The notes beneath the pieces were generated by a model. That model saw only the letters and a program-made list of their open reading frames with translations, made no database searches and was not told the DNA's origin. This document shows positions 201 to 64,000 of a DNA stretch of 64,000 nt, piece by piece; the first letter of the stretch is position 1; each line of letters begins with the position of its first letter. This DNA comes from Heptranchias perlo (Eukaryota), in contig NC_090359.1 of NCBI RefSeq assembly GCF_035084215.1, forward strand, positions 16,492,001 to 16,556,000, read 5' to 3'. The position numbers and the translations under genes are program-made.

Positions 201-325
201 GACTGAAACTTCATCTACTCCTGTGAAATTCCTCCATCGACTATTCTAACTGAGTCATTGGCCTGATTTTTAAAAAAAGACTTAACGCCTGTTTTGAAAC
301 ATCAACAGACCTTCTGTGCCTGAAT

Positions 326-810
326 GATTCCGTGTTTCATGTCCACAAGGAGTGTGAGAGGTTGCAGCCCCTGTTCCACTATTTAAAGGGGCTGCTCCAC
401 AACTTCTGGCTGCGCTTCAGTCCCACGCTCCTCATCTTTGGCCACCGGGTGAGGAGGAGGGCGGGTCAGTCGGAGGATCTCCTCGTGGGCCTGTCCAAGG
501 TGGCCATCCACAGGTCCAGGTTAGACGGGGCCCGTGGGGGCGGTCGCTCCAACTGTCGGCCTCTCTTCCGCGGAATTCTCCGTGCCTGGGTGGCCCTGGA
601 GATGGAGCACGCGGTGTCTGCCGGTACGCTTGGGGCTTTCCGCGACCGGGGGGCACCGCAGGGGCTGGAGTGCATCCTGGACCAAAATAATAAAATTTAA
701 ATTTGACACTTATTTTGGGTTGTTTGGTTTTTCTGCACATGAACACACCCTAAACCCCGCTTCTTATAAAAGGGGGGCCTAAAAACACAAAAAAACTCAA
801 AAAAAATCAA
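326..810 (+). mobile_element. 5'-truncated Tx1 (L1-clade) LINE 3' fragment
   Basis: ORF 332..700 matches the C-terminus of the Tx1 ORF2 at 46470..47852 (...ALEMEHAVSAGTL...QGLECILD). It is followed by the family 3'UTR hairpin ccccgcttcttataaaaggggggcc and an A-rich tail at 781-810. Confidence 0.9.
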
Positions 811-6875: not shown

Positions 6876-9728
6876 CTAGATAAACTGGGTTTGCTTGTGT
6901 TTCCTGTTCAGGAACAAGGCAATCCAAGAAGCAGAGATCAGAGAGACAGCGCTCACAGTCAGGGCCAAGATCAGGACCACCTCAGACGCCACACCTATAA
7001 AGCAACAAGAAACCAATGGTTAGTGAAGGAAATACTGAGGGGAAAATGGAAACTAGCAGTCGGCCAACTCACCACCTGGAGACCTCTCCTGCATCCTTTG
7101 CTCAACATCATTAAGGGGCTCAGTTGCCAGGTCTGTCACATGAGGATCCAGAATGACCAAGGGTCCAAGTGAGGCCTCACCCTCCCACTTCAACTCAGCA
7201 TCACTCTCTGCAATATCAAACATTCCAGTTAGAGAGTAAAGGGTGACCTCCAACAATCAAGAGGATCAATGTCCTACCAGGTCCAGATACAAGATCCCTC
7301 CTTCCTCTGGAATCAACGAGGAAATCCCTTGTGGCACTGCAGTTGCCCAGATGACAACAGGCACACACGTCATTGGTCGATTCTTCCAATGGGGTCCAGC
7401 TCAACCAGAGAATCAGTTTATCAACCAGGTTGTCCATCACCCTTTAATCAACACATCCCTGAACGAGAGAGGGAACTTACATATTCTGGAAAGTACAAGC
7501 CTTGTTCATGGAATCTCTCCGATCCACTGCAGCAACTTTCAGGTGACAGGTGATGAAAATCTGAGGGACACATTCAATACAAGTTGTTATTTCGTGACCT
7601 CCTCCCAACATGGGGAACCCAATGTTTGGCTTCCTCTTACCAAGGAACGGTCATCTCCAAAGAAGCGGAACGCATCCAGATCAAACTGGAGTTTGTCCAG
7701 CTCACGTTCACCTCTTGGCAACACAAAGGTTGAAAAGGAGTCCTCAGCTTTGCTGTCCAGGAGGCAACTGAAGAAAGATTTAAAAAGGGACAAAGTGAAT
7801 TAAGTGAACCGATTGAGACAGAACCAGCTGGAGAAAGCAGAGAGCTCCTTACCCATGGGAGTCAATGATGTTGTATCTTGGGGTGGAATCCTTGTCTGGG
7901 CTCAATGTAGCTGCACAGCTGTCAATGTAGAGCTTCAAGGGCATGTGGTTGGTCATTGAAACAGAGGCCTCAATGTGAATGAGGCCACCCAGGTAGTAGA
8001 CAGTCAAGGTGCGCTCTGTAAGCCAGTCATCTGAAGTACAAGAGGAAAAGGGTTGGAGACAGTGGGTGTAACTCCCAGTGGGAGACGACAGAAAAGCACT
8101 CCCCATCCACCCATCACATACCGTTCATAAGACGCAGTGAGAATGACAGAAGCCCTTCTCCAGACTTGGTCGAGCTGAATGGGATCCAGGTGGGCTTGAT
8201 AGGGTCACTGCTCACATTGCCCTTCCTGAAAGGACAGTACAGTAATTTCAGGACAACTTCACAGAACTGCACCTGCTGTGGACCTTATTTGCAATAGAGT
8301 AAAGATTCTTACCTAAAATAGTGGCACTCAATGGGAATGACTGCTCCATTAGTTCTCACAATAACAGATCCACGAGCATTTGGGGTGTGGTTCAGGTGGG
8401 TGGTGTCGACCAGGAAATCGCCAGCCATCTGAAAGACATCAGGTTAAGGAATGAAGAGCTGGTCTCATTGAACAAAAGCTATTTCTGGTCATTTTCCTAC
8501 CCTGTTAAGCAGCAGTTTAAGGGGTTTCAGCTGCTCCTCAATGACACATGATTGAAGTAGCTCCACCATTGGTAGAAGTTGCCTGGAGCAGCCTCTGTTC
8601 CTCTGCTCAGTCCACCTTCTTTTCCAGGGGACTTCAGGCCTGCAGTCAGAAACCCCTGAAATGATTGGCACTGCCAGATTTGATGAGCATTCTTTCCCAT
8701 ATAGATTAGAGCTTTCACCTAAAGGGGCTCAAGTTACCCCTGATATGGAGCACAAAACACAACATCACATTTAAATCTCATCTGTGTCCGTGGAATCAAT
8801 CGTATTGGCAGGTGTAACAACCAAAAGTGGAGTTCCCCTTCAATACAGTGTATCCCAATTATTGTTCCACTTGTTTCATCTTTCAAGGGAAGTCTCAACA
8901 GGAACTTCCACACTGAACATTCATTGACCACAAGTTGAGGCAACAGGCCTGAATATCCACAGGAAGGAAAGGAAAAGATAAATCAATTGAGGCACAAAAG
9001 AACAGAGTGGTTTGGAGAAATGCAGGTGAAGGTTCAAGGTCAATAGAATTGAATCTCTGAGTTAGAGAGTAGCAATGACCCATTTAAGAAAGATGCAGTC
9101 CCTCAGTGACAAGTTGAAGTTCTTTTTAAATATAAAGCGAAGATTGACATGTCAACATAAAGAAGTAGTTTCACACAGGGTGATACTTCACAGTGGGCAA
9201 AAATTTATACACAGATTTCATTCAGGGATCTCCTCAGTGGCTGGAGTTTCACCTGATGTTAATGAGTTCAGAGTGGGCAGTAATCTACACAGTGAAATTG
9301 GAGCAAGAGTTGAGGAATCACATTACCTGCAATCTGCTGCCACATTCATGGAGCCCATAGTCAAAGAGGACAGTGTGGTTCTGAGAGTAGATCCCAGTTG
9401 GCCGATAACCTGCTGTCTCCAGGGTCAGGTCAGCAGCTTTAATCAGGTGCCTGGTTCTAAATAAATCCATGTCTCCCCTCACCAGCAGGTTCTGCTCTCC
9501 ACACTGCACCATCACAGTCTGCAGTGGAGACAGACTTCTCCCCTCAGACACACTGAAATGGGAACCAAAGGGAGGGACAGGGAGAGGGACTCTCTGGGGC
9601 ACAGGGGTGGGTTTTACTCTTCTCCATGGAAATCTCTGCCCTCTAAACTGTTGCCAAATATCAGAGCAACAAACCACTCCAACTAACACCAGCACTGGGA
9701 ACAAACCTCTCACTACAAAATCCCCCAT
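6876..9728 (-). CDS. zp3: Zona pellucida sperm-binding protein 3 (ZP3/ZPC)-like, 9 exons, 460 aa open frame; possibly decaying
   Basis: Exons 9327-9728, 8313-8428, 8122-8225, 7853-8030, 7641-7767, 7481-7560, 7278-7399, 7073-7207 and 6876-6994 are all GT-AG and in frame (1383 nt). The protein has a signal peptide, ZP-N (VQCGE...LHECGS...IPIECHY), the IHP/PTWIPF linker, ZP-C ([32 protein letters not shown]), furin site RGRR, EHP (ASLGPLVIL) and a TM helix. AATAAA at 6857-6862. Confidence 0.92.
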
Positions 9729-9745
9729 GATACCAAATAACTCAA

Positions 9746-9842
9746 CTATCACTTTACCCACCAACCAGCACCTTTTTTTTTTCTCTTTTTTTTTTTCCTT
9801 TTTTTCTTTTTCTTTTATCACTTTAACCACCAACCAGCACCC
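9746..9842 (-). repeat. About 26-bp direct duplication of the ZP3 5'UTR flanking a pure A-rich tract
   Basis: tatcactttacccaccaaccagcacc (9747-9772) and tatcactttaaccaccaaccagcacc (9817-9842) are separated only by a T-rich tract (A-rich on the minus strand). Confidence 0.85.
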
Positions 9843-10165
9843 TTTTTTTCCCTTTTTTTTTGTGTTTTTTAGGCCCCCCTTTTACAAGAAGCGGGGGGGT
9901 GTAGGGTGTGCTTAAGTACTAAAAACCAAATAAAACGAAACCAGGCATCAAATTAAAATTTTATTTTCCTCGTCCAGGATGCACTCCAGCCCCTGCAGTG
10001 CCCACCGGTCGCGGAAAGCCTCAAGCGTACCGGCAGACACCGCGTGCTCCATCTCCAGGGCCACCCGGGCGAGGAGCAACCCGCGAAAGAGAGGCAGACA
10101 AGCCGAGCGCCCGCCCCCACGGACCGCGAGCATCCTGGACCTGTGGATATCCAGGATGCACTCCA
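9843..10165 (-). mobile_element. Tx1 3' fragment inserted at the ZP3 TATA position
   Basis: ORF 9948..10133 is the Tx1 ORF2 C-terminus (...ECILDEENKILI). The 3'UTR hairpin and A-tail abut the ZP3 5'UTR. Confidence 0.9.
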
Positions 10166-10179
10166 GTTTCGTCTAGTTT

Positions 10180-11459
10180 TCTGGTGGGTCAGTGGCGGGT
10201 GGACTCCCTGCCGGAGGAGCTCAGGCCTTTCGCCTGGAGTACCACGCACCTCCGGTACCTGGGAGTCTACCTCGGCCCGGCCGAGGAAGCCTGGCCGGCG
10301 AACTGGGAAGAGCTGGAGGCCAAGGTCGCCGCTCGCCTGGCGCGCTGGACAGGACTGCTCCGAGTGTTATCCTACAGGGGTCGAGTGCTGGTCATAAACC
10401 AGCTGGTGGCCGCCATGTTGTGGTACAGGTTGGTCACTTTGACCCCACCCCCCGAATTTGTCGCCAAGATTCAGAGGAAGTTCGTCGACTTCTTCTGGGC
10501 CAGAGGGATACACTGGGTCGCTGCCGCGGTCCTGAGTCTCCCGCTTAGGGAGGGCGGTCAGGGGCTGGTGTGCGTCCGCACCCAGGTGGCAACTTTCCGC
10601 CTTCGGACGCTGCGGTGATACCTGTACGTTGAGCGTCCTCTTAGATGGCGTGCGCTGGCGACGTATTTTTTCCGCCAGCTGCACGGCCTGAACTCCGACA
10701 CGCAGCTCCTGTTCGTCTCGCTGCTGGGCGGCCGCATGTCTTCCTCGCCCTCGTCTCTCGGCCGGACACGCCCTGGCGTACCATCCTGCCGTCCGGCGGA
10801 GACGGGGGTTCCCAGTGGGGTGCTCTCTACTCAGGGATCCTCCCGTGTTCCATCGGGGATCTGGGGTGGAGGGTGGCGTACGGAGCAGTCGCGTGCAACC
10901 GGCGGTTACGCCATTTCACGGACACCCAGGCCGCTTGTGATTTCTGCGGCCTGGAGGAGTCCGTGTTCCATCTGTACACTGGGTGTGCGAGACTGCAGCC
11001 CCTGTTTGATTATTTGAAGGGGCTGCTCCTCAAGTTCTGGCTGCATTTCAATCCCACGCTCCTGATCTTTGGCCGCCCGGTGAGGAGGGGAGCGGGCAGG
11101 TAGGTGGACGTCCTCGTGGGCCTGCTCCTGGGCCTGTCCAAGGTGGCCATCCACAGGTCTAGGATGATCGTGGTCCGTGGGGGCGGTCGCTCGGCCTGTC
11201 TGCCTCTCTTCCGCGGAATGCTCCGCGCCCGGGTGGCCCTGGAGATGGAGCACGCGGTGTCTGCCGGTACGCTCGAGGCTTTCCGCGACCGGTGGGCACC
11301 ACAGGGGCTGGAGTGTATCCTGGACGAGGAGAATAAAATTTTAATTTGAACACTTGGTTTTGGTTTGTTTGGTTTTAGTATTTAAGCACACCCCACACCC
11401 CCCTCTTATAAAAGGGGGGCCTAACAAAATAAAAAAAAAGAAAAAAGGAAAAAAAAAAA
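10180..11459 (+). mobile_element. 5'-truncated, internally deleted Tx1 (head-to-head with the previous fragment)
   Basis: ORFs 9998..10618, 10645..11103 and 11104..11349 match Tx1 ORF2 (LVGQWRVDSL...; CDFCGLEESVFH; ENKILI). About 540 bp are missing at 10742 relative to 46700-47240, with premature stops. A-tail at 11425-11459. Confidence 0.92.
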
Positions 11460-11910
11460 TCTGAAAGTGAAAAAAAAAATCTGAAAGTTTCTCTTTGTTT
11501 CAATCTCTTGGAATCATAACTTTGAATTATTTGATAATAATTTGATATTTTCACTGAAGTGGCTTTTCATAATCTGGTCAAGTTTATTACTTGTTAGTGA
11601 TTGTGATGTTGAGACAATATTCAAAGCAATCAAGTTGTCTTGAGTGAATTTGCAAACCATCCATTGGTCAGAGAAATGGAAATTCCATCCCATGGATGGT
11701 GTGAATCGTCCCCAGTTCTAATATAGAGAATGGGTGTGTCTGAGGATTGGCAGCATGGGGGCATCAACTGGGCAAAGCATTGTGGGATGCATCATTTTTA
11801 GTTTTGATTCTCATGAAATGTTGTTTGGTAAAATTCAGGATATTCAGCGAGAATGAGAGGCAGTGAAGATTACTGAATGCAATGTCACCCACACAAACAT
11901 CTCCATTTGT

Positions 11911-34153: not shown

Positions 34154-37100
34154 TCAAATTAAAATTTTATTATCCTCGTCCAGGATGCACTCCAGCCCCT
34201 GCGGTGCCCACCGGCCGCGGAAAGCCTCGAGCGTACCGGCAGACACCGCGTGCTCCATCTCCAGGGCCACCCGGGCGCGGAGCATTCCGCGGAAGAGAGG
34301 CAGACAGGCCGAGCGACCGCCCCCACGGACCACGATCATCCTAGACCTGTGGATGGCCACCTTGGACAGGCCCAGGAGCAGGCCCACGAGAACGTCCACC
34401 GACCTGCCCGCCCCCCTCCTCACCGGGCGGCCAACGATCAGGAGCGTGGGACTGAAATGCAGCCAGAACTTGAGGAGCAGCCCCTTCAAATAATCAAACC
34501 GGGGCTGCAGTCTCCCACACCCCGTGAACAAATGAAACACGGACTCCTCCAGGCCGCAGAAATCACAAGCGGCCTGGGTGTCCGTGAAATGGCGTAACCG
34601 CCGGTTGCACGCGACTGCTCCGTGCGCCACCCTCCACCCCAGATCCCCGATGGAACACGGGAGGATCCCTGAGTAGAGAGCCCCCCACTGGGAACCCCCG
34701 TCTCCGCCGGACGGCAGGATGGTACGCCAGGGCGTGTCCGGCCGAGAGACGAGGGCGAGGAAGTGGATGGTGTGCAGGAGCAGCCCGTACAGGAAATCCC
34801 TCCGCGCGGTGTGAAACGGCACGGAGGGAATTTCCGAGAGACGGCTGAAGTTGTGAGGCGCGGCCCTCCGAGGGAGGTTCCGGGGTTTGGCGCCGAGGAG
34901 GAAGTCCGTCCGAACGGGGGTCAGGTCGGACGGGATGGCTCCGCACGACTGAGCCGCCTCCACATCCCGAGTGGAGTCAGGGCCGAGCGCCGATTTCAAC
35001 GCCCAGATGGCGATGGCCGCGTCACCGGCACGCCACGAGGACATCCGTGCGGCGAGCGCCCACGGCTCCAAACAACCCGACCCACCGCCATCCAGGACGT
35101 CCCTGACTCTGGTCACCCGACCGGCCACGGCCCTCCGCACCGACAGCCGCGAGTGGCCGAAGCCGATATCGCGGAGGAACGGATTCCCGAGCAGCGGCTC
35201 CTGCAGGACGGCCGCTACCCCTGACGGGCGAGAGCTCCGACCGGAGGCGACCATGTTCCAGACCCTGAGCAGATCCTGGTAAAAGACAGGCAGCTCCTGC
35301 AAAGACATGCGGCCGCCCACCAGCGAGATGAACAGGAGCTGCGTGTCGTAGTTCAGGCCGTGCACCTGGCGGAAAAAATACGTCGCCAGCGCACGCCATC
35401 TAAGAGGACGCTCAACGTACAGGTATCGCCGCAGCGTCCGAAGGCGGAAAGTTGCCACCTGGGTGCGGACGCACACCAGCCCCTGACCGCCCTCCCTAAG
35501 CGGGAGACTCAGGACCGCGGCAGCGACCCAGTGTATCCCTCTGGCCCAGAAGAAGTCGACAAACTTCTTCTGAATCTTGGCGACAAACTCGGGGGGTGGG
35601 GTCAAAGTGACCCATCTGTACCACAACATGGCGGCCACCAGCTGGTTTATGACCAGCACTCGACCCCTGTAGGATAACACTCGGAGCAGTCCTGTCCAGC
35701 GCGCCAGGCGAGCGGCGACCTTGGCCTCCAGCTCTTCCCAGTTCGCCGGCCAGGCTTCCTCGGCAGGGCCGAGGTAGATTCCCAGGTACCGGAGGTGCGT
35801 GGTACTCCAGGCGAAAGGCCTGAGCTCCTCCGGCAGGGAGTCCACCCGCCACTGACCCACCAGGAGTCCGGAACATTTCTCCCAGTTGATCCTTGCGGAA
35901 GACGCCGCAGAGTAGACCTCTTGGCACTCGCGCATCCTCCGCAAGTCAAGGGGATCGGTGACCACGAGGAGCACGTCGTCGGCGTAAGCCGAAAGGACGA
36001 CCTCCACGTCCGGCTCGCGCAGAGCCAGTCCCGACAACCTCTTGCGCAAGAGGCGCAGGAAAGGCTCCACGCAGACGGCGTATAATTGGCCGGACATGGG
36101 GCACCCCTGACGCACTCCTCTCCCGAAGCGAAGGGGCGCCGTCAAGGATCCGTTAACCTTAATCAGACACTCCGCGGCGGCGTACAGAAGTCGGATCCGG
36201 GCGACGAAATGCGACCCGAACCCGAAAGCGCGCAGAGTCCCGAATAGATACTCGTGATCCACCCTGTCGAACGCCTTCTCCTGATCTAAGGAAAGGAAGG
36301 GGACCGACAGACCAGCCCTCTGGGAATGGTGGATCAGGTCCCGGACCAGATGGATGTTATCGTGGATCTTCCGGCCCGGGACCGTGTAGGACTGGTCGGG
36401 GTGGATTATGTGGGCCAGCACGGTGCCCAGGCGAGCAGACATCGCCTTGGCAAAGACCTTATAATCCGTGCTGAGGAGGGAGACCGGGCGCCAGTTTTTA
36501 AGGTTGCGGAGATCCCCCTTCTTAGGCAGCAGGACCACGACCGCCCTGCGCCACGAAAGGGGCATCTCCCCGGTCGCCAGACATTCCCCCAGGACCCGCG
36601 CGTAGTCGCCCCCCAGGACGTCCCAGAAGGCCCTGAGGAACTCCACGGTCAGCCCGTCCAGCCCCGGGGATTTGCCCCTAGAGGGCTGGTGGAGGGCGCC
36701 CGTCAGCTCCGCCAAACTCAGCGGAGCGTCCAGACTGTCGGCGTCCTCCGGGCCGACCTTCGGCAGGTCCTCCCACAAAACTCTGCGCGCCTCCTCGCTG
36801 GACGGATCCGGAGAGAACAGAGCCTCGTAGTAAGATCGAGCCCGGGCCCTGACTCCCTCCGGGTCCGAGACGAGGGACCCGTCGTCGGCCAGCAGCGTAA
36901 GGAGCTGCTTACGAGCCCCCCGCCGCTTTTCCAGCGAGTAGAAGAAGGGAGAGCCGCGGTCCAGGTCCCGCAGGAGCTGGAGCCGCGACCTCACGTACGC
37001 TCCTCGGGACCCGACCAGTTGCAGGTCCCTCAGAGCGTCCTTCCTCTCCTCGTACACCTGCCGCAGGGCCGGATCCTCGGCGGCCTGACCGAGACGGGAC

Positions 37101-38060
37101 TCCAGGCCAAGCACCTCCTGCTCCAACCGCCTGACCTCGGACTCCCGCCTCTTAGTCGACCCCCTCGCGTACTCTTGACAGAAGAGGCGGACGTGAGCCT
37201 TGCCCACGTCCCACCATAGCCTCAAGGAGGAGAAGCCTCCCCGCTTCCCTCTCCAGTCGCTCCAGAACAGACGGAACGAGTCCCGGAACCGCGCGTCCTC
37301 CAGCAGCCGGTTGTTAAAGTGCCAGTACGCGGACCCCGACCGGGCGCGGAGCAGAGCGAGCTCCATCCACACCAGGTGGTGGTCCGAGCACCACACCGGC
37401 CGGATGGAGGCCGACGGGACGCAGGAGGCGTACGCCCGCGAAACGTACAGGCGGTCGATTCTGGTGCTCCCCCCTCCGGCCCTCACAAAGGTGAACTGGC
37501 TGGAGTCGGGATGGAGATTCCGCCAGACGTCCACCAAGTCGAAGGACCCGACCAGGTCCCTCAACTTCTCCGTCGCCGTTCGGGCACGCGCGGGACCGGA
37601 GCGGTCCCTCGCCTCGAGGGTACGGTTAAAATCCCCCCCCGAGGATAATGCACTCGCCGGCGTCGACGGAGTTCAGGTAAGTGGACACTTCTTCAAAGAA
37701 GCTCACTTGCTCGGCTCCGGACCAGGGGGCGTACACGTTCACCAGGTGAAGCGGCACGTCCCCGTGGCGAAGGGCTCCGTGGAGCAAGCGGCCCGGCACC
37801 GGCTCCTTGACCCCCAAGATCTCCGGCTGAAAAGTCGGGGCCAACAAGATGGCCACCCCACTCGAAACGCTGGCGAGGTGACTCAAGTAGACCCCCCCTC
37901 CCCATTCCAGGATCCACGTGGCCTCGTCTCCCGGAACGGTGTGGGTTTCCTGCAGAAAGCACACCGCATACTTCCCGTCCCGAAGGACCGAGAACTTGTC
38001 AAATCTACGGCGGGCGTCTCTGCCGCCGTTGATGTTGAGGCTGGCTATGGTTATCTCCAT
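34154..38060 (-). pseudogene. Tx1-A ORF2: APE endonuclease, reverse transcriptase and C-terminal zinc-binding domain; one +1 frameshift in a C-run at about 37635
   Basis: SLNING, LQETH, GGDFN and SDH (APE); LDQEKAFD, QGCPMS and YADD (RT); CDFC...ESVFH. The downstream part is the 1136-aa ORF 34154..37564. Confidence 0.93.
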
Positions 38061-38090
38061 GGCAAGAGCACAGCGCAACCTACCTAAAAA

Positions 38091-40140
38091 CTAATGCGCG
38101 GAGGGAGCGGGGCCGCTAGTCGACCTCCTCTCCCCCCAAGAGCCCGGTGAGGAGGGATCTGAGCCGGCGCAGACCGACCCCGCCGCCGTCCTCCTCCGCG
38201 GCCACGGACACGACGGCGGCCCGGACCGAGCGGATCAGATGCGCCGGCTCCGACCAACGGTCGAGGGCCCGCCGGGCGCCATTGCCATGATGGGTCCAAC
38301 CGGACACAAAATCCCGGAGTTCCTCAACGGGGATGAGGGGAGACTCGGTGCAGGGCACGAGGGCGTCCACCACCTCACTGGCGGCGAACTCTAAATCCTC
38401 CCCAGTGCCCACCACCGAGTCCCCGACCTCCTCCGGGCCATCGTCGCCCGCGGCCGACCCACTCCCCGCACAGGGTGCGGAGAACGGGATGGCCGCGCCG
38501 GCCGGCCCCAACTCTGTCACGATCCCACCCCCAGGATCGTCGGCAGAGGATTCCTCCCCGGGCTCTACCGGGGGGTCCGGGTCGGAGGGCGGCTCCGGGC
38601 GAGGACCCTCCCCAGCCTCCGAGCGGTGGTAAACGGGCACCCGGATATAATGGGAAACCGGGGAAACCGGGGAGAACATATATTCCAGCTCTCCAACCTC
38701 CCCCGGCTCCGCGCCCAGAGACTGGGAGAAGGGGGTCTCCCCACCCACACCGCCACCGACCGACCCGGCCCGTGACATTTTCGTGTTAAAACCCGCCACC
38801 AGGTCGAGCAGGTCCTGGGAGAGGTCGAGCCGAGGGCAGACGAATCCGGCCTCTTCGGCCTCGCCCGCTCCGGCACCCAGGACCCCCGACCCGGTGAACG
38901 GGAAGCTCGCGTCGGCGCACGAATCCGCGGCCCCCCCTTTCGGCAGGGTCTCTCCATCCCCCCCGGGAGGCACGGGCACGATCTCCTCCCCCCGAGAGGT
39001 GGATGACCCCCGCTGGCGGTGGGAAATGGAGGGTGGAGTCGCAGGATCCGCCGCCGGCGCCGACTCCGATTCCCTTTTCGCGGGGGGGCCGTCCCTTGGC
39101 AGGGTTCCCCTCCGCTTCCAGGGAGCGGCGCCTTTTCTGTTTTCCGGAGGGTGGCGGAGGGAGGGCGAGCCCCATGTCTGTTGGGCACCCCCCCTCCGCT
39201 CCCTCCTGAATACCCGCCAGCCCTGGCTCTGCCGCGACCGCGAGTTGCCGTTTGGCCGCGGTCACGACCTCGGGCTGGCTGGAAGGATTTCCAACCCGGG
39301 GACCAGCCTCCTGATGTTTACTCTTCTTCCGCGCCTTCTTCGGGCGAGGGTTCCCCCCCCACCCCCGGCGGAGGCCTCGTCGGCACCCTCCGCCCGCGCA
39401 GTGGACTCTCCCGACGCGGGGGCGGGTTTGGGGGGAGGAGCGGTGGCGGCGCCAGCCTCGGCCGCCGGAGCTGCTTTGGCGGCCTGGGAGGCGGGGCAGT
39501 TCTTCCTCAGGTGCCCCACCTCCTTACAGGCATGGCACCGCCCACCCTCTGCCGTCCAGAAGACGCGGTAGGCGGTCCCCTCGTGGAGGGCGTTAAAGCC
39601 CCCCTCCGTAACCTCCTCCCGCGCCAGCTTGATAAACGCCTGGCGACGGAAGGAGTAGACATGATGGAGGCTGGTGTCCCTGAGGCCGAGCGACAGCGGC
39701 GTTACCCCCGACCTCACCTCCCCCAGTTGACGCAGGTGAGGGAGGAGGAGCTCATCCGGCAGGAAGGGCGGGACGTTTGACAGCACCACCCGCTGCGCGG
39801 TGGCCTCCAGCGGGTCCACCGGCAGGAAAGTCCCGCCCACCGTGAGCCCCTTACTAAGGGCCAGGGACACCGCCCGCTCGGACCTCAGGAAGACTACAGC
39901 CTTCCCGTACACTTTCGAGGCCGCGACGATGGCCGAGGGGCCGACAACCTCGGCCATGGCCTTCACGCAGGCCTCAATCGTCATGCCGGGGTGGGCATAG
40001 GCTTTGACCCCGTGCTTCCTCGTCACGAGGCGGAATGGCGCCGGGCCAGCAGGAGTAGCACGAGCAGCGGGAGCAGCAGCCGCAGTAACGCCCGCATACG
40101 TCCTGCTGGGTCCCGGCACTGGCGAAGATGGTGTTGCCAT
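38091..40140 (-). pseudogene. Tx1-A ORF1 (nucleic-acid binding, CCHC zinc knuckle), frameshifted
   Basis: MATPSSPVPGPSRTYA...VVLSNVPPFLPDELL...CHACKEVGHLRKNC, split over ORFs 39262..40314, 38786..39265 and 38116..38979. Confidence 0.88.
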
Positions 40141-41039
40141 TCTCTTGTACGCCACGCCCACCCCAAATCTTAGGTCTTCCAGGTATTTTTCTTTTTTTTT
40201 GGTTGGACCAAAAGCCCAAGGAAACCTCCTCTCCCCAAAATGGTACTGATCTATTGGGAGAGGGGCTCCTTTTCTGGGGCGTTTTTTCTTTTTGTTTTTA
40301 AATGCGGAAACCACAAGAGAGAGAGGGAGGGATGTTCCTTAAAGAGGAAGGAGGGAGTCTGCAGGGGCGGGCCGCTGCAGAAATGTCTCTGGAGGGAAGG
40401 AACGTACACGTACACGGGTGGCCGATAACGTGGAGTCTTCCGGTGGGCAGGGGGAGGAGATGTCTTCCCCTAGACAGCCGGAGCTGACTCGGCTCAGTCC
40501 TCCACAGATGGCAAAAGTTTCTTCACCCAGGCAGCTCCAGCTGTCCCGGGCCAGACACTTGGGGGTGGAATCCCCTGTTGGAAAAAGATCTTCTTACCTC
40601 CCCCTACCTTCAGTCGGCCACCACGATCGCCGTCGACCTCCTCTTCCTGCTGTTTGAGGCTGACAGCAGCAGCAGCAGCAACAGCACACCCCTCGCAGCT
40701 GCCTGATATTTTTTTTTCGCCTCCTTCTTTCTTTCTCCCTCCTTCCCTCTCGATGGCTTTCCTCTCCTCTGTGCTCTGCACCTGCTTGCAGCACTTCCGC
40801 AGGGCCACACTCGATTGGCTGGCAAGTGGCTCGCCAATACCGACCGGCCCCAGCACTCTCCTCACAGGCCTCTCTCCGTGGGAGACGTGTGGATGTTGTC
40901 AGAGTCCGTGAGCCACGGACTCTGCTTCAGGCTGATTGGGACAGACAATTACTGCCAGTTAACAGCCCGCAGTTCGCACCGTCACTGATGTTGAGACCCA
41001 AAAGGTCAATCCTTTTTTTTTTCCAAAGAAACTTGTGAA

Positions 41040-41237
41040 ACAGGACAGTGGAAGTGATTGAAAAAAAAAGGATTCTAATGACATTGAGTTTTTTTTCTGA
41101 AAGACATCCAATCGCATCACAACAGCGACTCATTGAAATGGAATCAGGTGACTGCAGTGTATAAAAGGTGCTGGTTGGTGGGTAAAGGAATAGTTGAGTT
41201 GTTTGGTATCATGGGGGATTTTGTAGTGAGAGGTTAA
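41040..41237 (+). promoter_or_regulatory. Orphan ZP3 promoter, 5'UTR and first 8 codons in the palindrome spacer
   Basis: CCAAT 41108-41112, E-box CAGGTG 41145-41150, TATAAAA 41160-41166. 41167-41235 matches the reverse complement of 9704-9772 with 3 mismatches, including ATG GGG GAT TTT GTA GTG AGA GGT (MGDFVVRG), then stops at the Tx1-B junction. Confidence 0.88.
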
Positions 41238-41869
41238 TCACTGTGACACGAACAACTTGCTGAGAGCAGAGCAGAGCAGAGCACAGTCAGCCAGAGGAGA
41301 AGGAGACGAGAGGAACCATCAACAGGGAAGGAGGGAGAAGGAGAACACCATCACCATCAACATCAGCCGTGAGGGGTGTGCTGCTGCGGGTTCGGCCGTC
41401 AACACAGAGGGAGGAAGAGGAGGTCGGCGCCGTGAGGTGTGGACGGCTGGAGGTAGGGGGAGGAAGAAGACCATAAAAGGACAGGGGGTTTCCCCCCAAG
41501 TGTCTGGCCCGGGACGGCTGGAGCTGCCTGGGTGAAGTTACTTTTCTTTTGTTTCCATCCTTGGAGGACTGAGCCGAGGCAGCTTCGGCTGTCTAGGGGA
41601 AGACATCTCCTCCCCACTGCCCACCAGAAGGAAGAAGGTGCAGCCCCGCCCCTCTTCGACCCACTTCAGCGGCAGCCCACCCCTGCGGACTCTCTCCTTT
41701 CTTTGGGCGCCATCCCTCCCTCACTTGCTCTCCTGCTCTTGTGAGCTATACCTCTTAAGGCATAAACATCGGACAAAGGAGCCCCTCTCCCAAATTAATA
41801 TTGGCAGACGTGGGAGAGGCGGTTATCCCGACGTCCATTAAGGCCGTCTCCATCCATCGGCCTGAGACT

Positions 41870-43916
41870 ATGGCGTCACCATCTTCGCCGGTGCCGGGAC
41901 CCAGCAGGACGTATGCGGGAGTTGCCGCGGCGGCCGCTCCTGCTGTTTCTGCCGCTCCTGCTGGGCCGGCGCCGTTTCGCCTCTTGACGAGGAAGAATGG
42001 GGTCAAGGCCTACGCCCACCCCAACATGACCATTGAGGCCTGCGTGAAGGCCATGGCCGAGGTTGTCGGCCCCTCGGCCATCGTTGCGGCCTCCAAGGTC
42101 TACGGGAAGGCTGTTGTCTTTGAGGTCCGAGCGGGCGGTGTCCCTGGCCCTGAGCAAGGGGCTCACGGTGGGCGGGACTTTCCTGCCGGTGGACCCGCTG
42201 GAGGCCACCGCGCAGCGGGTTGTCATCTCCAACGTCCCGCCCTTCCTTCCGGATGAGCTCCTCCTCCCCCACCTGCGTCAACTGGGGGAGGTGAGGTCGG
42301 GGATAACGCCGCTGACGCTCGGCCTCAAGGATAACAGCCTCCGGCATGTTTACTCCTTCCGTCGCCAAGCCTTTATTACACTGGCACGGGAGGAGGTGAC
42401 GGAGGGGGGCTTTAACGCCCTCCATGACGGGACAGCCTACCGTGTCTTCTGGACGGCGGAGGGTGGGCGGTGCCATGCCTGTAAGGAGGTGGGGAACCTA
42501 AAGAAGAACTGCCCTGCCTCCCAGGCCGCCAAACAAGCTACGGCGGCCGAGGCTGGCGCCGCCACCGCTCCTCCCCCTAACCCCGCCCTCGCGTCGGGAG
42601 AGTCAACTGCGCGGGCGGAGGTTGCCGACGAGGCCTCCGCCGGGGGGGAAGGAGGGCACCCTCGGCCGCGAAAAGCGCTGAAGAAGACGAGGCACCAGGA
42701 GGCTGGTCCCCGGGACGTTAACGGGTCGAGCCAGCCCAAGGCCGTGGTCGTGACCGCGGCTGATCAACATCTCGCGGTCGCGACAGAACCCGGGCTGGCG
42801 GGTAGTCAGGAGGGAGCGGAGGTGGGGGCCCCAGCAGACATGGGGCTCCCCCTCCCTCCGCGACCCTCCGGCAAGAAGAAAAGGCGCCACTCCCTGGAAG
42901 CAGGGGGGAAACCTGCTGAGGGACGGCCCCCCGTGGATGGGGAGTTGGCGCCACTCGCGGATCCTGCGGCCCCACCCGCTACATCTAAACAGCGGCGGGG
43001 GTCTTCTGCCTCTCGGGGGGAGGAGATCGTGCCCGTGCCGCCCGGGGGGGATGGAGAGACCCTGCTGATAGGGGGGGTCGCGGATCCGCCCATAGACATA
43101 CGTACCCCGTTCACTGGGTCGGGCGGCCTGGGTGCCGGGGTGGGCGAGGCCGAAGAGGCCGGATTCGTCTGCCCTCGGCTCGACCTCTCCCAGGACCTGC
43201 TCGACCTGGTGGCGGGGTTTAATAAAAACATCTCACGGGCCGGGTCGGTCGGTGGCGACGTGGGTGGGGGGACCCCCTCCTCCCAGTATCTGGGCACGGA
43301 GCCGGGGGAGGTGGGAGAACTGGAGTATACGTTCTCCCCGGTTTCCCCGGTTTGCCCCTATATCCGGGTGCCTGTTTTTCACCGCCCGGAGGAGGGGGAG
43401 GGTCCCCGGCCGGCGCCACCCTCTGACGCGGACCCCCCGGTAGAGCCCGGGGGGGACTCCTCTGCCGACGATCCGGGGGGTGGGATCGTGACAGAGGCGG
43501 GGCCGGCCGGCACGGCCGTCTCGTTCTCCGCACCCTGTGCGGGGAGTGGGTCGGCCGCGGGCGACGATGACCCGGAGGAGGACGGGGACTCGGTGGTGGG
43601 CACTGGGGAGGATTTGGAGTTCGCCGCCAGTGAGGTGGTGGACGCCCTCGTGCCCGGCACCTAGTCTCCCCTCATCCCCGTTGAGGAGCTCCGGGATTTT
43701 GTGTCTGTTTGGAGCCATCGTCGCGATGACGTCCGGCTGGCCCTCGACCGTTGGTCGGAGCCGACGCAATTAATCCGCTCGGTCCGGGCCGCCGTCGCGT
43801 CCGTGGCCGCAGAGGAGGGCGGCGGCAGGGTCGGGTTGCGCCGGCTCAGGTTTCTCCTCACCGGGCTCTTGAGGGAGTGGCGGTCGACTAGCGGCCCCGC
43901 TCCCTCCGCGCATTAG
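41870..43916 (+). pseudogene. Tx1-B ORF1, disrupted (frameshift at about 42120, stop at 43662, zinc-knuckle H>N)
   Basis: MASPSSPVPGPSRTYA... continues in ORF 42063..43664 (CHACKEVGNLKKNC) and ORF 43701..43916. Confidence 0.88.
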
Positions 43917-43945
43917 GTTTAAGTAGGTTGCGCTGTGCTCTCGTC

Positions 43946-46900
43946 ATGGAGATCACCATAGCCAGCCTCAACATCAACGGCGGCAGAGACGCCCGCCGTA
44001 GATTTGACAAGTTCTCGGTCCTGCGGGACGGGAAGTATGCGGTGTGCTTTCTGCAGGAAACCCACACCGTTCCGGGAGACGAGGCCACGTGGATCCTGGA
44101 ATGGGGAGGGGGGGTCTACTTGAGTCACCTCGCCAGCGTTCCGAGCAGGGTGGCCATCTTGTTGGCCCCGACTTTTCAGCCGGAGATCTTGGGGGTCAAG
44201 GAGCCGGTGCCGGGCCGCTTGCTCCACGTAGCCCTTCGCCACGGGGACGTGCCGCCTCACCTGGTGAACGTGTACGCCCCCTGGTCCGGAGCCGAGCAAG
44301 TGAGCTTCTTTGAGGAAGTGTCCACTTACCTGAACTCCGTCGACGCCGGCGAGTGCATTATCCTCGGGGGGGATTTTAACCGTACCCTCGAGGCGAGGGA
44401 CCGCTCCGGTCCCGCGGATCGCCGGTCGGCGACGGGGAAGTTGAAGGACCTGGTCGGGTCCTTCGACTTGGTGGATGTCTGGCGGAATTTCCATCCCGAC
44501 TCCAGCCAGTTCACCTTTGTGAGGGCTGCAGGAGGGAGCACCAGAATCGACCGCCTGTACGTTTCGCGGGCGTACGTCTCCTGCGTCCTGTCGGCCTCCA
44601 TCCGGCCGGTGTCGTGCTCGGACCACCACCTGGTGTGGATGGAGCTCGCTCTGCTCCGCGCTCGGTCTGGGTCCGCGTACTGGCACTTTAACAACCGGCT
44701 GCTGGAGGACGCGCGGTTCCGGGACTCGTTCCGTCTGTTCTGGAGCGACTGGAGAGGGAAGCGGGGAGGCTTCTCCTCCTTGAGGCTATGGTGGGACGTG
44801 GGCAAGGCTCACGTCCGCCTCTTCTGTCAAGAGTACGCGAGGGGGTCGACTAAGAGGCGGGAGTCCGAGGTCAGGCGGTTGGAGCAGGAGGTGCTTGGCC
44901 TGGAGTCCCGTCTCGGTCAGGCCGCCGAGGATCCGGCCCTGCGGCAGGTGTACGAGGAGAGGAAGGACGCTCTGAGGGACCTGCAACTGGTCGGGTCCCG
45001 AGGAGCGTACGTGAGGTCGCGGCTCCAGCTCCTGCGGGACCTGGACCGCGGCTCTCCCTTCTTCTACTCGCTGGAAAAGCGGCGGGGGGCTCGTAAGCAG
45101 CTCCTTACGCTGCTGGCCGACGACGGGTCCCTCGTCTCGGACCCGGGGGGAGTCAGGGCCCGTGCTCGATCTTTCTACGAGGCTCTGTTCTCTCCGGATC
45201 CGTCCAGCGAGGAGGCGCGCAGAGTTTTGTGGGAGGACCTGCCGAAGGTCGGCCCGGAGGACGCCGACAGTATGGACGCTCCGCTGAGTTTGGCGGAGCT
45301 GACGGGCGCCCTCCACCAGCTCTCCAGGGGCAAATCCCCGGGGCTGGACGGGCTGACCGTGGAGTTCCTCAGGGCCTTCTGGGACGTCCTGGGGGGCGAC
45401 TACGCGCGGGTCCTGGGGGAATGTCTGGCGACCGGGGAGATGCCCCTTTCGTGGCGCAGGGCGGTCGTGGTCCTGCTGCCTAAGAAGGGGGATCTCCGCA
45501 ACCTTAAAAACTGGCGCCCGGTCTCCCTCCTCAGCACGGATTATAAGGTCTTTGCCAAGGCGATGTCTGCTCGCCTGGGCACCGTGCTGGCCCACATGAT
45601 CCACCCCGACCAGTCCTACACGGTTCCGGGCCGGAAGATCCACGATAACATCCACCTGGTCCGGGACCTGATCCACCATTCCCAGAGGGCTGGTCTGTCG
45701 GTCGCCTTCCTTTCCTTGGATCAGGAGAAGGCGTTCGACAGGGTGGATCACGAGTATCTATTCGGGACTCTGCGCGCTTTCGGGTTCGGGTCGCATTTCG
45801 TCGCCCGGATCCGACTTCTGTACACCGCCGCGGAGTGTCTGATTAAGGTTAACGGATCCTTGACGGCGCCCCTTCGCTTCGGGAGAGGAGTGCGTCAGGG
45901 GTGCCCCATGTCCGGCCAATTATACGCCGTCTGCGTAGAGCCTTTCCTGCGCCTCTTGCGCAAGAGGTTGTCGGGACTGGCTCTGCGCGAGCCGGACGTG
46001 GAGGTCGTCCTTTCGGCTTACGCCGACGACGTGCTCCTCGTGGTCACCGATCCCCTTGACTTGCGGAGGATGCGCGAGTGCCAAGAGGTCTACTCTGCGG
46101 CGTCTTCCGCAAGGATCAACTGGGAGAAATGTTCCGGACTCCTGGTGGGTCAGTGGCGGGTGGACTCCCTGCCGGAGGAGCTCAGGCCTTTCGCCTGGAG
46201 TACCACGCACCTCCGGTACCTGGGAGTCTACCTCAGCCCTGCCGAGGAAGCCTGGCCGGCGAACTGGGAAGAGCTGGAGGCCAAAGTCGCCGCTCGCCTG
46301 GCGCGCTGGACAGGACTGCTCCGAGTGTTATCCTACAGGGGTCGTGTGCTGGTCATAAACCAGCTGGTGGCCGCCATGTTGTGGTACCGGTTGATCACTT
46401 TGACCCCCCCCCCCTGAGTTTGTCGCCAAGATTCAGAAGAAGTTTGTTGACTTCTTCTGGGCCAAAGGGATGCACTGGGTCGCTGCCGCGGTCCTGAGTC
46501 TCCCATTTAGGGAGGGCGGTCAGGGGCTGGTGTGCGTCCGCACCCAGATGGCAACTTTCCGCCTTCGGTCGCTGCGGCGATACCTGTACGTTGAGCGTCT
46601 TCTTAGATGGCGTGCGCTGGCGACGTACTTTTTCCGCCAGGTGCACGGCCTGAACTACGACACGCAGCTCCTGTTCGTCTCGCTGCTGGGCGGCCGCACG
46701 TCTTTGCGGGAGCTGCCTGTCTTTTACCAGGATCTGCTCAGGGTCTGGAACATGGTCGCCTCCGGCCGGTGCTCTCGCCCGTCAGGGGTAGCGGCCGTCC
46801 TGCAGGAGCCGCTGCTCGGGAATCCGTTCCTCTGCGATGTTGGCTTCGGCCGCTCGCGGCTGGCGAAGCAGATGGCCGTGGCCGGTCGGGTAACCAGAGT

Positions 46901-47852
46901 CAGGGACGTCCTGGATGGCGGAGGGTCGGGTTGGCTCGAGCCATGGGCGCTTGCCGCACGGATGTCCTCGTGGCGTGCCGGGGACGCGGCCGCCGCCATC
47001 CGGGCGTTGAAATCGGCGCTCGGCCCTGACTCCACTCGGGGTGTGGAGGCGGCTCAAGCGTGCGGAGCCATCCCGTCCGACCTGACCCCCGTTCGGACAG
47101 AATTCCTCATCGGCGCCAGGCCCCGAAACCTCCCTCGGAGGGCTGCGCCTCACAACTTGAGTCGTCTCTCGGAAATTCCCTCCGTGCCGTTTCACACCGC
47201 GCGGAGGGATTTCCTGTACGGGCTGCTCCTGCACACTCTCCACTTCCTCGCCCTCGTCTCTCGCCCGGACACGCCCTGGCGTGCCATCCTGCCGTCCGGC
47301 GGAGACGGGGGTCCCCAGTGGGGGGCTCTCTACTCAGGGATCCTCCCGTGTTCCATCGGGGATCTGGGGTGGAGGGTGTTGCACGGAGCAGTGGCGTGCA
47401 ACAGGCGTTTACGCCATTTTACGGACTCCCAGGCCGCCTGCAATTTCTGCGGCCTGGAGGAGTCCGTGTTTCATTTGTGCACTGGGTGTGCGCGACTGCA
47501 GCCCCTGTTCGATTATTTGGAGGGGCTGCTCCTCAGGTTCTGGCTGCATTTCAGACCCACGCTCCTGATCTTTGGCCGCCCGGTGAGGAGGGGGGCGGGC
47601 AGGTCGGTGGACGTTCTCGTGGGCCTGCTCCTGGGCCTGTCCAAGGTGGCCATCCACAGGTCTAGGATGATCGTGGTCCGTGGGGGCGGTCGCTCGGCCT
47701 GTCTGCCTCTCTTCCGCGGGTTGCTCCGCGCCCGGGTGGCCCTGGAGATGGAGCACGCGGTGTCTGCCGGTACGCTCGAGGCTTTCCGCGGCCGGTGGGC
47801 ACCGCAGGGGCTGGAGTGCATCCTGGACGAGGAGAATAAAATTTTAATTTGA
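43946..47852 (+). pseudogene. Tx1-B ORF2 (APE, RT, zinc-binding domain); one +1 frameshift in the C11 run at 46404-46414
   Basis: ORFs 43928..46417 (829 aa, APE and RT with YADD) and 46470..47852 (460 aa) join if one C is removed. Confidence 0.93.
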
Positions 47853-61863: not shown

Positions 61864-63912
61864 ATGGCTTCCCAAGTGTGTCAGAACTATCACAAGGAGT
61901 GTGAGGATGGTGTCAACAAGCAGATCAATATGGAGCTCTATTCCTCCTATGTTTATCTTTCTATGGTGAGTTTTGTTTCTTTGACCCCTTCACATTGGAG
62001 ATTCTAATGTGACATTACAAAATTCTGTTTTCTCCAACTCATCTATTGCCTTTTCTCTAATCTGCACCCCTCCCCCCAATTGATGGATGGTGAGTGTCTT
62101 TTTAAAGCTGTAATATAATGTGATTTATTGTACAGTCATTATCAAAATGTCTCCCTCTTCCTTGCAGTAGTTGCACCACATTCTATATCTTAAATCTCAA
62201 TTGTTCACTTTCCTGGTGTCTGAGCTTTCTATTGAAGTTGTGTTTTGCAGTACACTCTGCATTCAATGCCTGGGATTCATATTTCTTACCCTCTATTCTA
62301 CATCTCTCCACAGTCTTTCCCCACATTCTCCTTGCAATGGGGGGGGGGGGGTCATAATCTTAAATTAGAGCTAGTCCATTTAGGAGGTAAGTGAGGAAGC
62401 ACTTTTCCCCTCAAAGGTACTGGAAATCTAGAACTCTCTCCCTTGAAAGTCTGTGGATGTTGGGGATTAATTGGTGCTTTCAAGACTGAAATCTTTTGTT
62501 GGGTCAGGGTATTGAAGGATGAGTTGATGTACAGATCCATGTTCTAATTAAATCATTGAGTTGGCTCAAATGGCTGTATGTCCCACTTCTGTTTCCATGC
62601 TCTGAACCTTCACTTTTTAAGTACCAGCTTGTCCCTGTCTGTCTTCTCTCTCTGCCTTTGCTCTATTGGTGGTAGGGCCTTCAGCCATTTTGGTCCTCCT
62701 CAGTGTAACTGTTAATCCCTTTGCCTTCCTACCTCTGTCTGTCTCTCAAAGCATTCAAATGCTAACAGTTTCTAGTCATGCAACTCTTACTGCTTGGTAT
62801 CTGTTTCTCCTCTGAAATGCCTTGATGTTTAGTGTTGAAGGTGCTAAGTTAATGCTGTTTGTGGTAGTTGTAGAAAGGGGTTTGTTTCAAATTTCAGTCA
62901 TGAAAAGGATGTAAGCTTTTATGTTCCTTCACTAATTTCTAGACATATAATTCAGTCTTGGGTGTGAAGATTAAAGTGAAATATTGTGTTGAGCATGTTC
63001 AAAGCTGAATTGGTAATTTTCCATTGGCCAGCTTCCCTATTGCTAGGAGTGAGATTATCTCACTACCAGGTTAGTGAAGCAAGTCAGCCTGTGCTAGTTT
63101 TCAGAACCATCTGCCTACAAGCTCAGTGAGACTTGAACCCTTGACAGAAAGCAAAATATTGAGGTTGGCTTTATGTACAATACCCATGATGATAATTCTG
63201 ATACCCAACTACTTTTGATCTCACCAGTCCTATTACTTTGACCGGGATGATGTTGCCCTGCTTCACTTTGCTGAGTTCTTCAAGGAGCAGTCGCATGAGG
63301 AATGGGAGCACGCTGAGAAACTGCTGAAATTCCAGAATCAGCGTGGGGGCCGAGTCATCTTGGAGGATATCAAGGTTAGATTTAATGGAGTGGCCTTCTG
63401 AATGGCTCCCCTTAAATGGACAATTTTAAATATTTCTAAAGCAATTTGTTCTCATGCACATAATTACATAGAATGTCCAGCACAGAAACAGGACATTTAG
63501 CCCAACTGGTCTATGCTGGTGTTTATGCTCCACATGAGCTGCCTCCCACCTTCATCTTGCCCTATCATCACATCCATCTATTACTGTCTCCCTCAGTACT
63601 TCTCCTTAAAGACATTTATACTATTTGACTCGTGGTTGTGGTGGTGTAATTCTATATTCTTGGGACAATTGGTTCATGGCAACATGGACATCTGATTGCT
63701 TTTCACCCCTATTTTCCTTCAGTACTTTCTTGTGTATTTTGTTTAATCCATTAAGTGAACTGGCTGAGACCTGATTCCCTTTTCAGAAGCCAGAGCAGGA
63801 TGAGTGGAGCAATGGTCTGGAGGTGATGCAGAGAGCTCTGCAGATGGAGAAGAATGTAAACCAGAGTCTGCTGGATCTGCACAAACTCTCCACTGAGAGG
63901 ACAGACCCTCAT
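61864..63912 (+). CDS. fth1: Ferritin copy A' (exons 1-3; exon 4 beyond window)
   Basis: Exons 61864-61965, 63228-63374 and 63787-63912, open frame. No CR1 in intron 1. R>L, R>W and A>V changes relative to A. Confidence 0.92.
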
Positions 63913-64000
63913 GTAAGTTTTAAATGTGGGCCTTTGGGTAAGTTCGAGGTGGTGGAAATTTACTGTCCTTGAGCCGATTCAAAAGATCTTCATACCCAAT

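Follow-up and report, generated by a model that had tools for sequence, protein, structure and literature searches.

A window of 64,000 nucleotides from the 3.25-Gb genome of Heptranchias perlo (C38:16,492,001-16,556,000) holds one copy of an amplified unit of ZP3 and ferritin genes, together with insertions of a Tx1-clade retrotransposon. This Tx1 family retains a copy with both open reading frames (ORFs) intact, leaves target-site duplications (TSDs), nicks its targets with relaxed specificity, clusters at the ZP3 and ferritin promoters, is enriched near the hexamer CAGGTG and at one type of solo long terminal repeat (LTR), and carries transduced 3' sequence. The explanation that I regard as rather more probable than its competitors taken together is that of a relative of Xenopus Tx1L whose relaxed endonuclease inserts into promoters predicted to be open in the oocyte, and not by recognition of the TATA box. 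Promoter preference was judged by proxies, namely motifs, the LTR and the amplicon; the "open" and "germline" nature of the targets would follow from the motifs and from the identity of the genes. The original prediction for this window held that the family prefers open core promoters, in particular TATA boxes, of multicopy germline-expressed genes; the pattern is real, broader but looser than that version.

The Tx1 element

Judged by its sequence, the element represents a young family of long interspersed nuclear elements (LINEs) related to Tx1L. Its ORF2 of 1,301 aa encodes an APE endonuclease (PF03372 in Pfam) followed by a reverse transcriptase (RT; PF00078), is 55% identical over 824 aa to Xenopus Tx1L (YTX2_XENLA, P0009), and, in a quick maximum-likelihood tree of 19 rows, clusters with Tx1L and with elements of sturgeon and turtle (SH-aLRT 96-100). 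Two weak Pfam matches, both below the cut-off, correspond to a C-terminal zinc motif (zf-RVT, E 4e-5) and to the ORF1 knuckle (zf-CCHC, E 0.002), while no chromatin-reader domain was found in a Pfam scan of the ORF1 pieces and ORF2. Poly(A) tails, 5' truncations and TSDs, as expected of a Tx1-clade non-LTR retrotransposon, are all present. Both full-length copies in the window are frameshifted; ORF1 and ORF2 are both open in one of eight long copies examined. A first survey of the assembly gives about 1,445 candidate copies. An exact 25-base pattern of the Tx1 3' end occurs 496 times in the genome, and C38 holds 21 of the 40 closest matches to the window's Tx1 3' end.

At least four different 5' untranslated regions (UTRs), 73-82% alike, are found on near-identical ORF2s (at window positions 41236 and 40990, and in the C38 blocks at 9.6 and 14.8 Mb), and each variant has its 5' end at a ZP3 or ferritin promoter. 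The variety may reflect either rapid promoter turnover or reliance on the host promoter.

Clustering at ZP3 and ferritin promoters

The unit of ZP3 and ferritin genes is amplified to 40 or more copies. This amplicon was sampled over 1.06 Mb, made of five evenly spaced 200-kb blocks of C38 plus the window, and the 67 Tx1 blocks found there were collapsed by their flanks to 33 unique blocks (both flanks) or 17 (either flank). Respectively 22 of 33 and 10 of 17 of them lie no more than 300 bp from the ATG of ZP3 or of a ferritin gene, against 2.6% of positions, an enrichment of more than 20-fold; the same interval holds none of the 121 (71 by either flank) CR1 and none of the 13 (7) short interspersed nuclear element (SINE) controls. 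The clustering is far beyond chance once duplicates are collapsed. The promoter preference of the original prediction is thereby upheld at ZP3 and ferritin, even though multicopy genes are not the sole target (see below).

Distances were measured with Tx1 sequence removed and orphan exon stubs counted as anchors, a measure that flatters rearranged blocks; therefore, junctions were also read one by one. Of some 27 events, about two thirds fall no more than 330 bp from a TATA box or from a Tx1 5' end, Tx1 inserting also into the 5' ends of other Tx1 copies; the remaining third lie downstream of the G-protein-coupled receptor (GPCR)-like gene, downstream of ferritin, or in distal ZP3 exons. Distinct junction positions are -147, -87/-75, -69, -27, +4 and +76 at ZP3, and -247, -235, -214, -164, -100, -88, -77, +8 and +17 at the ferritin paralogues. 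Since the promoter junctions scatter from -250 to +80 on both strands, with Tx1 identities of 74-97%, the preference is old, repeated and not bound to a fixed site.

The Tx1 copies of the window are the following:

318..806, plus strand: old 5'-truncated Tx1, 82% to the young copy, downstream of the GPCR-like ORF, a non-promoter site
9773..9816, minus strand: poly(A)-only insert, with a 25-nt duplication (9748-9772 / 9817-9841)
9843-10148 (minus strand) and 10181-11460 (plus strand): back-to-back Tx1 pieces, 3' junction at the ZP3 TATA site
20783..20960, plus strand: old Tx1 3' fragment (80%), 5' junction 214 bp upstream of the ferritin A TATA-like box
21250..21329, minus strand: Tx1 remnant about 500 bp upstream of ferritin A
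about 25450..25620, plus strand: old Tx1 remnant in ferritin B intron 1 (local score 125, shuffle maximum 82)
26560..26640, plus strand: very short piece of a Tx1 3' end, about 100 bp upstream of the TATA-like box of ferritin B
27191..27915: 5'-inverted old Tx1 (77-81%), together with short remnants of the 3' end, in the interval of the divergent promoters of ferritins B and C
28113..28375, plus strand: young Tx1 3' fragment (28126-28362) with a 13-nt TSD (28113-28125 / 28363-28375)
33495..34053: old Tx1 remnants downstream of ferritin C, in the 3' flank of both full-length copies
34054..40990, minus strand: full-length, frameshifted Tx1 with 5' UTR variant b; its 5' end lies upstream of the TATA box of the orphan ZP3 promoter
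41236..47950, plus strand: full-length, frameshifted Tx1 with 5' UTR variant a; its 5' end lies 25 nt inside the coding sequence of ZP3

All the ends on which the original prediction was built are present, including the pile-up between ferritins B and C, the ends upstream of ferritins A and B, and the full-length element that starts in orphan ZP3 exon 1. Most of them, however, are shared through duplication of the amplicon and are not independent, several being single old events multiplied in this way. The 20783 junction is common to 30 of 30 ferritin A copies and the 9843 junction to 25 of 30 ZP3 copies, in both cases with queries that favour copies resembling those of the window; in four of the other five ZP3 copies, other Tx1 insertions sit about 100 bp or less from the TATA box. 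Along the same line, the 41236 junction (76 nt past the orphan ZP3 TATA box) is common to five sampled places, that of 28126, which directly follows the ferritin C TATA box at 28104, recurs in six, and that of 318..806 in four. The 5' end at 40990, overlooked in the original prediction, lies 147 bp upstream of the orphan ZP3 TATA box in the coordinates of the intact promoter.

Of the two ends formerly placed at the ZP3 TATA box, only one is a Tx1 end. At 9843, a minus-strand Tx1 3' end lies just past the TATA position, the TATA box itself being deleted and the block inverted in the window copy. Because two other copies (L035 and L049) show the un-inverted precursor, the sequences point to a 3' junction at the TATA box, followed by a loss of about 50 bp and an inversion against an older, opposed Tx1. 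The insert at 9773, found in six of 30 ZP3 copies, contains no Tx1 body sequence; it may be a transduced piece, or the TATA site may have been hit a second time. Nor are introns free of Tx1, as had been claimed: besides the remnant in ferritin B intron 1, insertions lie within ZP3 at +434, +827, +2355 and +2854 in other amplicon copies. The two counter-examples then conceded, here placed at 318-806 and 33495-34053, are indeed non-promoter events.

Two further observations come from the set of C38 blocks at 10.9/12.2 Mb, where a ferritin A copy has its TATA box swapped for a 20-nt Tx1 3' piece, and the 5' UTR of a ferritin paralogue carries a 36-nt piece of ferritin intron.

Dispersed copies

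Outside the amplicon, a discovery set was drawn from C1-C8 (90 of the 100 matches listed for the 25-base pattern) and a replicate set of 40 sites from C8-C37 (six from the first listing and 34 of 46 from a new one). The replicate left out tandem neighbours and known loci, and its three tests were fixed before it was collected. Eight of 64 automatic TSD calls were dropped from the discovery set (seven judged spurious, one a duplicate locus) and three of 22 from the replicate (two nested in Tx1, one doubtful). Clean TSDs of 10-18 nt, with a mode of 14, remain in 75 of 130 dispersed copies. The nick is G/C|A at 56 of these 75 sites and TG| at 27, the first A being partly ambiguous with the tail, and A+T within 10 bp of it is 54%. 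The target sites share no long consensus at a fixed position, only -2 to +2 deviating from background.

The T/A-rich, L1-type nick (TTTT/AA), named in the original prediction as something to be controlled for, is excluded, T|AAA being found at one of 75 sites.

CAGGTG lies within 150 bp of 23 of 55 TSD sites in the discovery set (p 7.5e-5) and of 10 of 19 in the replicate (p 8.7e-4), against a background of 160 of 881 distal windows (18%) and one of 25 CR1 3' flanks. It is also the top 6-mer of a de novo scan, with 33 observed against 12.7 expected per locus (p 6e-7, about 1e-3 after correction for all 6-mers), the top 7-mers being CCAATCA(G). The enrichment is specific to CAGGTG among ten E-box cores tested and persists without the LTR sites described below (16 of 48 discovery, 9 of 18 replicate). 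GC-box, cAMP response element (CRE) and YY1 motifs are not enriched at the dispersed sites.

Most dispersed sites lie in no recognisable gene promoter, and some lie in CpG-rich promoters of housekeeping type (L100, L291, L312). In one group of three (L107, L091 and L109), one site falls just past the TATA-like box of an apparent transposon gene, presumably of Harbinger type, and the other two in a shared CCAAT-rich repeat of unassigned type.

A solo LTR as target

Twelve of the 130 dispersed sites (nine discovery, 3 of 40 replicate) fall in a single type of solo LTR or no more than 100 bp from it, one of the nine discovery LTRs being a relative at 74% similarity. This LTR of about 215 bp has TG...CA ends, a CAGGTG box, a TATA box and AATAAA, and is flanked by a 5-bp duplication in three of five copies with both ends found; apart from short promoter motifs, it has no sequence in common with ZP3 or ferritin. 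Where the Tx1 site is inside the LTR, or the TSD includes the LTR end, Tx1 arrived after the LTR. Across 537 kb of flanks, nine of ten copies are at a Tx1 site and one is elsewhere. An exact 17-base core of the LTR has 3,095 matches in the genome, and it is present at four of 90 discovery sites (0.047 expected) and at two of 40 replicate sites (0.021 expected), so that the enrichment by exact motif is about 90-fold and replicated.

Transduced tails

Many Tx1 copies end in short pieces parted by poly(A), ahead of the true TSD. Amplicon pieces (ZP3 +8, +790, +860, +1270 and -70, and the 11460 flank) are present in the tails of at least 24 of the 130 dispersed copies, which makes the amplicon a main source of such copies; several others carry a piece of Tx1 5' UTR. 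The tails are, by their sequence, records of earlier insertion sites. Among these sites is another cluster, located in intron 1 of ZP3 close to a CAGGTG (+966) and to two CCAAT boxes (+972 and +1114). The remnants at 33495..34053 are one source of transduced tails. A pattern search for one transduced variant of the ZP3 promoter returned only two copies already known.

The tails of L092, L110, L123, L303 and L307 consist of several short poly(A)-parted pieces, which fits serial 3' transduction, and from tails of this kind the genealogy of the source elements could be reconstructed. Some 3 kb downstream of ferritin (window 11460-11900 and 33400-33500) lies a hotspot outside promoters; it contains CCAAT boxes, flanks several young Tx1 copies, is the source of seven dispersed tails and may be an enhancer.

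What sets the insertion site

In the mechanism proposed, the endonuclease would have lost the long sequence target of Tx1L, and for this reason the site would be set by nucleosome-free DNA opened by FIGLA/E-protein and NF-Y, or by tethering to those factors. The redundant amplicon and the neutral solo LTRs would tolerate promoter insertions, which would be purged at single-copy genes; copies landing in amplicon promoters would be transcribed and become the next source elements, their tails logging the addresses. FIGLA is reported to bind an E-box within 200 bp of the Zp1-3 promoters (PMC1906760, in part), and NFYA/NF-Y to open oocyte promoters (PMC13060261 and PMC13274144, in excerpt). Germ-line purging of promoter insertions has been documented in flies, according to the portion consulted of PMC10018349, and would explain the lack of enrichment at single-copy CpG promoters. 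A more tentative extension, which I consider possible though somewhat short of even, is that of a vertebrate LINE steered to oocyte promoters by chromatin that FIGLA/E-protein and NF-Y have opened, for which the amplified ZP3/ferritin array is a safe nursery that both attracts and expresses Tx1, its poly(A)-parted tails logging addresses; the "transposon inside transposon" targets of other Tx1 elements may be the same behaviour.

Several observations weigh against this mechanism. The 54 sites without a clean TSD have no CAGGTG excess (4 of 39 on the 5' side and, after dropping 20 of 54 sites with Tx1- or amplicon-derived flanks, 5 of 34 on the 3' side), so that the E-box signal is confined to sites with a TSD. 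Since SNAI, ZEB and other basic helix-loop-helix (bHLH) factors bind CAGGTG as well, FIGLA is a candidate for the factor behind the signal. CCAATC[AG] occurs at 12 of 55 discovery sites against 7% but at 3 of 19 in the replicate (p 0.15), and is not enriched relative to CR1 flanks. TATAWAW within 150 bp (17 of 74 sites against 19% background) and CpG islands (7 of 74 against 8.5%) are not enriched either, and 36 of 74 TSD sites have neither CAGGTG nor CCAAT. The ferritin promoters of the window have CCAAT without a proximal CAGGTG. In the amplicon, the distance measure draws rearranged blocks such as the 33495 group too near promoters, and the events at 318, 33495, 34054 and 11460, as well as ZP3 +2355 and +2854, are not at promoters.

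Four other explanations have to be weighed. According to the first, which I consider unlikely, duplication, the survival of expressed sources and homing guided by transduced tails, through base-pairing with the DNA of the ZP3 and ferritin promoters, produce the pattern in the amplicon with no general preference for chromatin. That most window ends are duplicates, that amplicon pieces sit in the tails of the dispersed copies, and that the flank of the 9843 insertion recurs in the structure at 9773 speak for it; yet the clustering survives the collapse of duplicates, tail pieces often mismatch the target position (L008, L016, L035), and the LTR and E-box enrichments are found on other chromosomes with no homology to the tails.

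An account of similarly low probability takes the promoters as hotspots of double-strand breaks, meiotic or linked to transcription, at which Tx1 RNA is captured, the endonuclease being minor in site choice. Small templated inserts (the 20-nt Tx1 and 36-nt intron pieces), deletions and inversions at the same promoters would fit it, as would the palindrome centred on the ZP3 promoter (see below). The enriched class has, however, clean 10-18-nt TSDs and the G/C|A nick, the signature of endonuclease priming, and CR1 and SINE ends avoid the ZP3 and ferritin promoters.

It is very improbable that the endonuclease itself recognises the TATA box or the ZP3/ferritin promoter sequence, as the original prediction had it for the TATA box: the 9843 and 28126 junctions are within 10 bp of a TATA box and the close relative Tx1L has a sequence-specific endonuclease (PMC1950540, in part), but TATAWAW is at background within 150 bp and at 5 of 75 sites within 30 bp, there is no long consensus, and the junctions spread over -250 to +80 in both orientations. 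A generic preference, not specific to oocytes, for any DNA accessible in the early embryo or in the male germ line can hardly be credited any better, for, although several sites lie in housekeeping-type promoters and the fly I-element has a weak general promoter preference in the sections seen of PMC10018349, CAGGTG is enriched while CpG islands and GC boxes are not, and the hottest targets include ZP3, reported as oocyte-restricted in catfish, with fish ZP3 arrays oocyte-expressed (PMC13704971, partial text).

The window, the amplicon and the palindrome

The window contains a GPCR-like ORF, one ZP3-like gene, three ferritin genes (A, B and C) and two full-length Tx1 elements, head to head, that flank an orphan ZP3 promoter. 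Its features other than Tx1 are:

6910..9772, minus strand: ZP3-like gene with ATG at 9728 and exon frames; its own TATA box and upstream promoter are absent in the window copy
14067..20569, minus strand: ferritin A gene, CCAAT boxes at -61 and -92, a CR1-type LINE within intron 1 of the window copy
23314..26459, minus strand: ferritin B gene, PF00210 (E 3e-11) in exon 24642-24794
28422..30330, plus strand: ferritin C pseudogene, exon 1 with a stop and a frameshift
41016..41235, plus strand: orphan ZP3 promoter in the middle of the palindrome, with CCAAT at 41108, the E-box CAGGTG at 41145, TATA at 41160 and ATG at 41211
47951..64000: mirror copy of the ferritin block (palindrome arm), 96-99%; the Tx1 ends there are duplicates and no new events

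The ZP-C domain (PF00100, E 9e-11) is in exon 7852-8034 of the ZP3-like gene, whose subtype I take to be ZP3 from its exon layout. The intron of ferritin A holds a near full-length CR1-type LINE with a GDSL-esterase ORF1 (window 15600-19430); it is a recent insertion, because only three of 30 sampled ferritin A copies have it (it is seen in L068 and L072; the L082 region differs).

In a self-comparison of the window, 41870-62919 mirrors 19431-40140 at 96-99% identity. The result is a 43-kb palindrome (19431-62919), likely formed by recombination between opposed Tx1 copies; at its centre, the orphan ZP3 promoter of 220 bp is bracketed by the 5' ends of two different full-length Tx1 elements.

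The amplicon copies lie on C38, mostly at 9-18 Mb, and on contigs C725, C1048, C1246 and C43; all 40 candidates scored per gene (the best 40 of 241 and of 200) are 96-100% identical. This large and recent amplicon comprises ZP3, at least four ferritin paralogues and the GPCR-like gene, with palindromes, at about 9-18 Mb of C38 and on C725, C1048 and C43. Tx1 has destroyed the promoter in most sampled ZP3 copies of the window's type. The array could be sex-linked or ovary-specialised.

Comparison with known systems

If the preferred reading, insertion into oocyte-open promoters, is true, the family is a natural case of LINE target choice moving from sequence reading by the endonuclease to chromatin, and a direct comparison partner for the well-studied Tx1L enzyme. 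Its insertions would then preserve a fossil record of the sites open in oocytes, in a fish lineage for which chromatin data are scarce, and would offer a mechanism for the turnover and rearrangement of an egg-coat and ferritin gene array. A literature search, with most subscription papers and Repbase reports outside its coverage, returned no Tx1 or other vertebrate LINE that prefers host RNA polymerase II (Pol II) promoters.

With Xenopus Tx1L the family shares the ORF2 similarity, the grouping in the tree, the APE endonuclease and RT, and the TSDs. Tx1L, however, nicks and inserts at one sequence inside the Tx1D transposon (as given in the available part of PMC1950540), whereas the present family has a G/C|A nick and many unrelated targets.

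Known Tx1 targets, as far as the extracts of PMC4494074 go, are small-RNA genes, microsatellites, satellites and transposons, including LTR elements and the 5' regions of Harbinger elements. A preference for transposons is likewise found in the crocodilian Tx1-8_Crp and Tx1-4_AMi (LTR retrotransposons) and Tx1-9_AMi (about 300 bp inside Harbinger 5' ends), and in Tx1-Mar; these differ in that one target accounts for more than 20% of their flanks, the measure of a sequence-specific Tx1, while among the present dispersed sites the solo LTR accounts for 12 of 130 (PMC4494074). The extracted portions of the crocodilian account name no host protein-coding promoter as a target, and the crocodilian sequences lie outside the present tree. 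Keno (U2 small nuclear RNA), Kibi and Koshi (microsatellites) are also of the Tx1 clade and have multicopy targets, but their target sequence and position are fixed (PMC4494074), whereas in the present family the position varies over about 300 bp and both strands.

Insertion near Pol II promoters, often 100-200 bp upstream, is shared with the P element, maize Mu, fission-yeast Tf1, fly LTR elements and the I-element; in the excerpts of PMC10018349 the I-element, a LINE, has about 1.7-fold promoter enrichment, and human L1 none. The strong promoter-seeking cases are DNA or LTR elements, whereas the present one is a vertebrate LINE, whose enrichment exceeds 20-fold at the promoters of the amplicon and reaches about 90-fold at the solo LTR.

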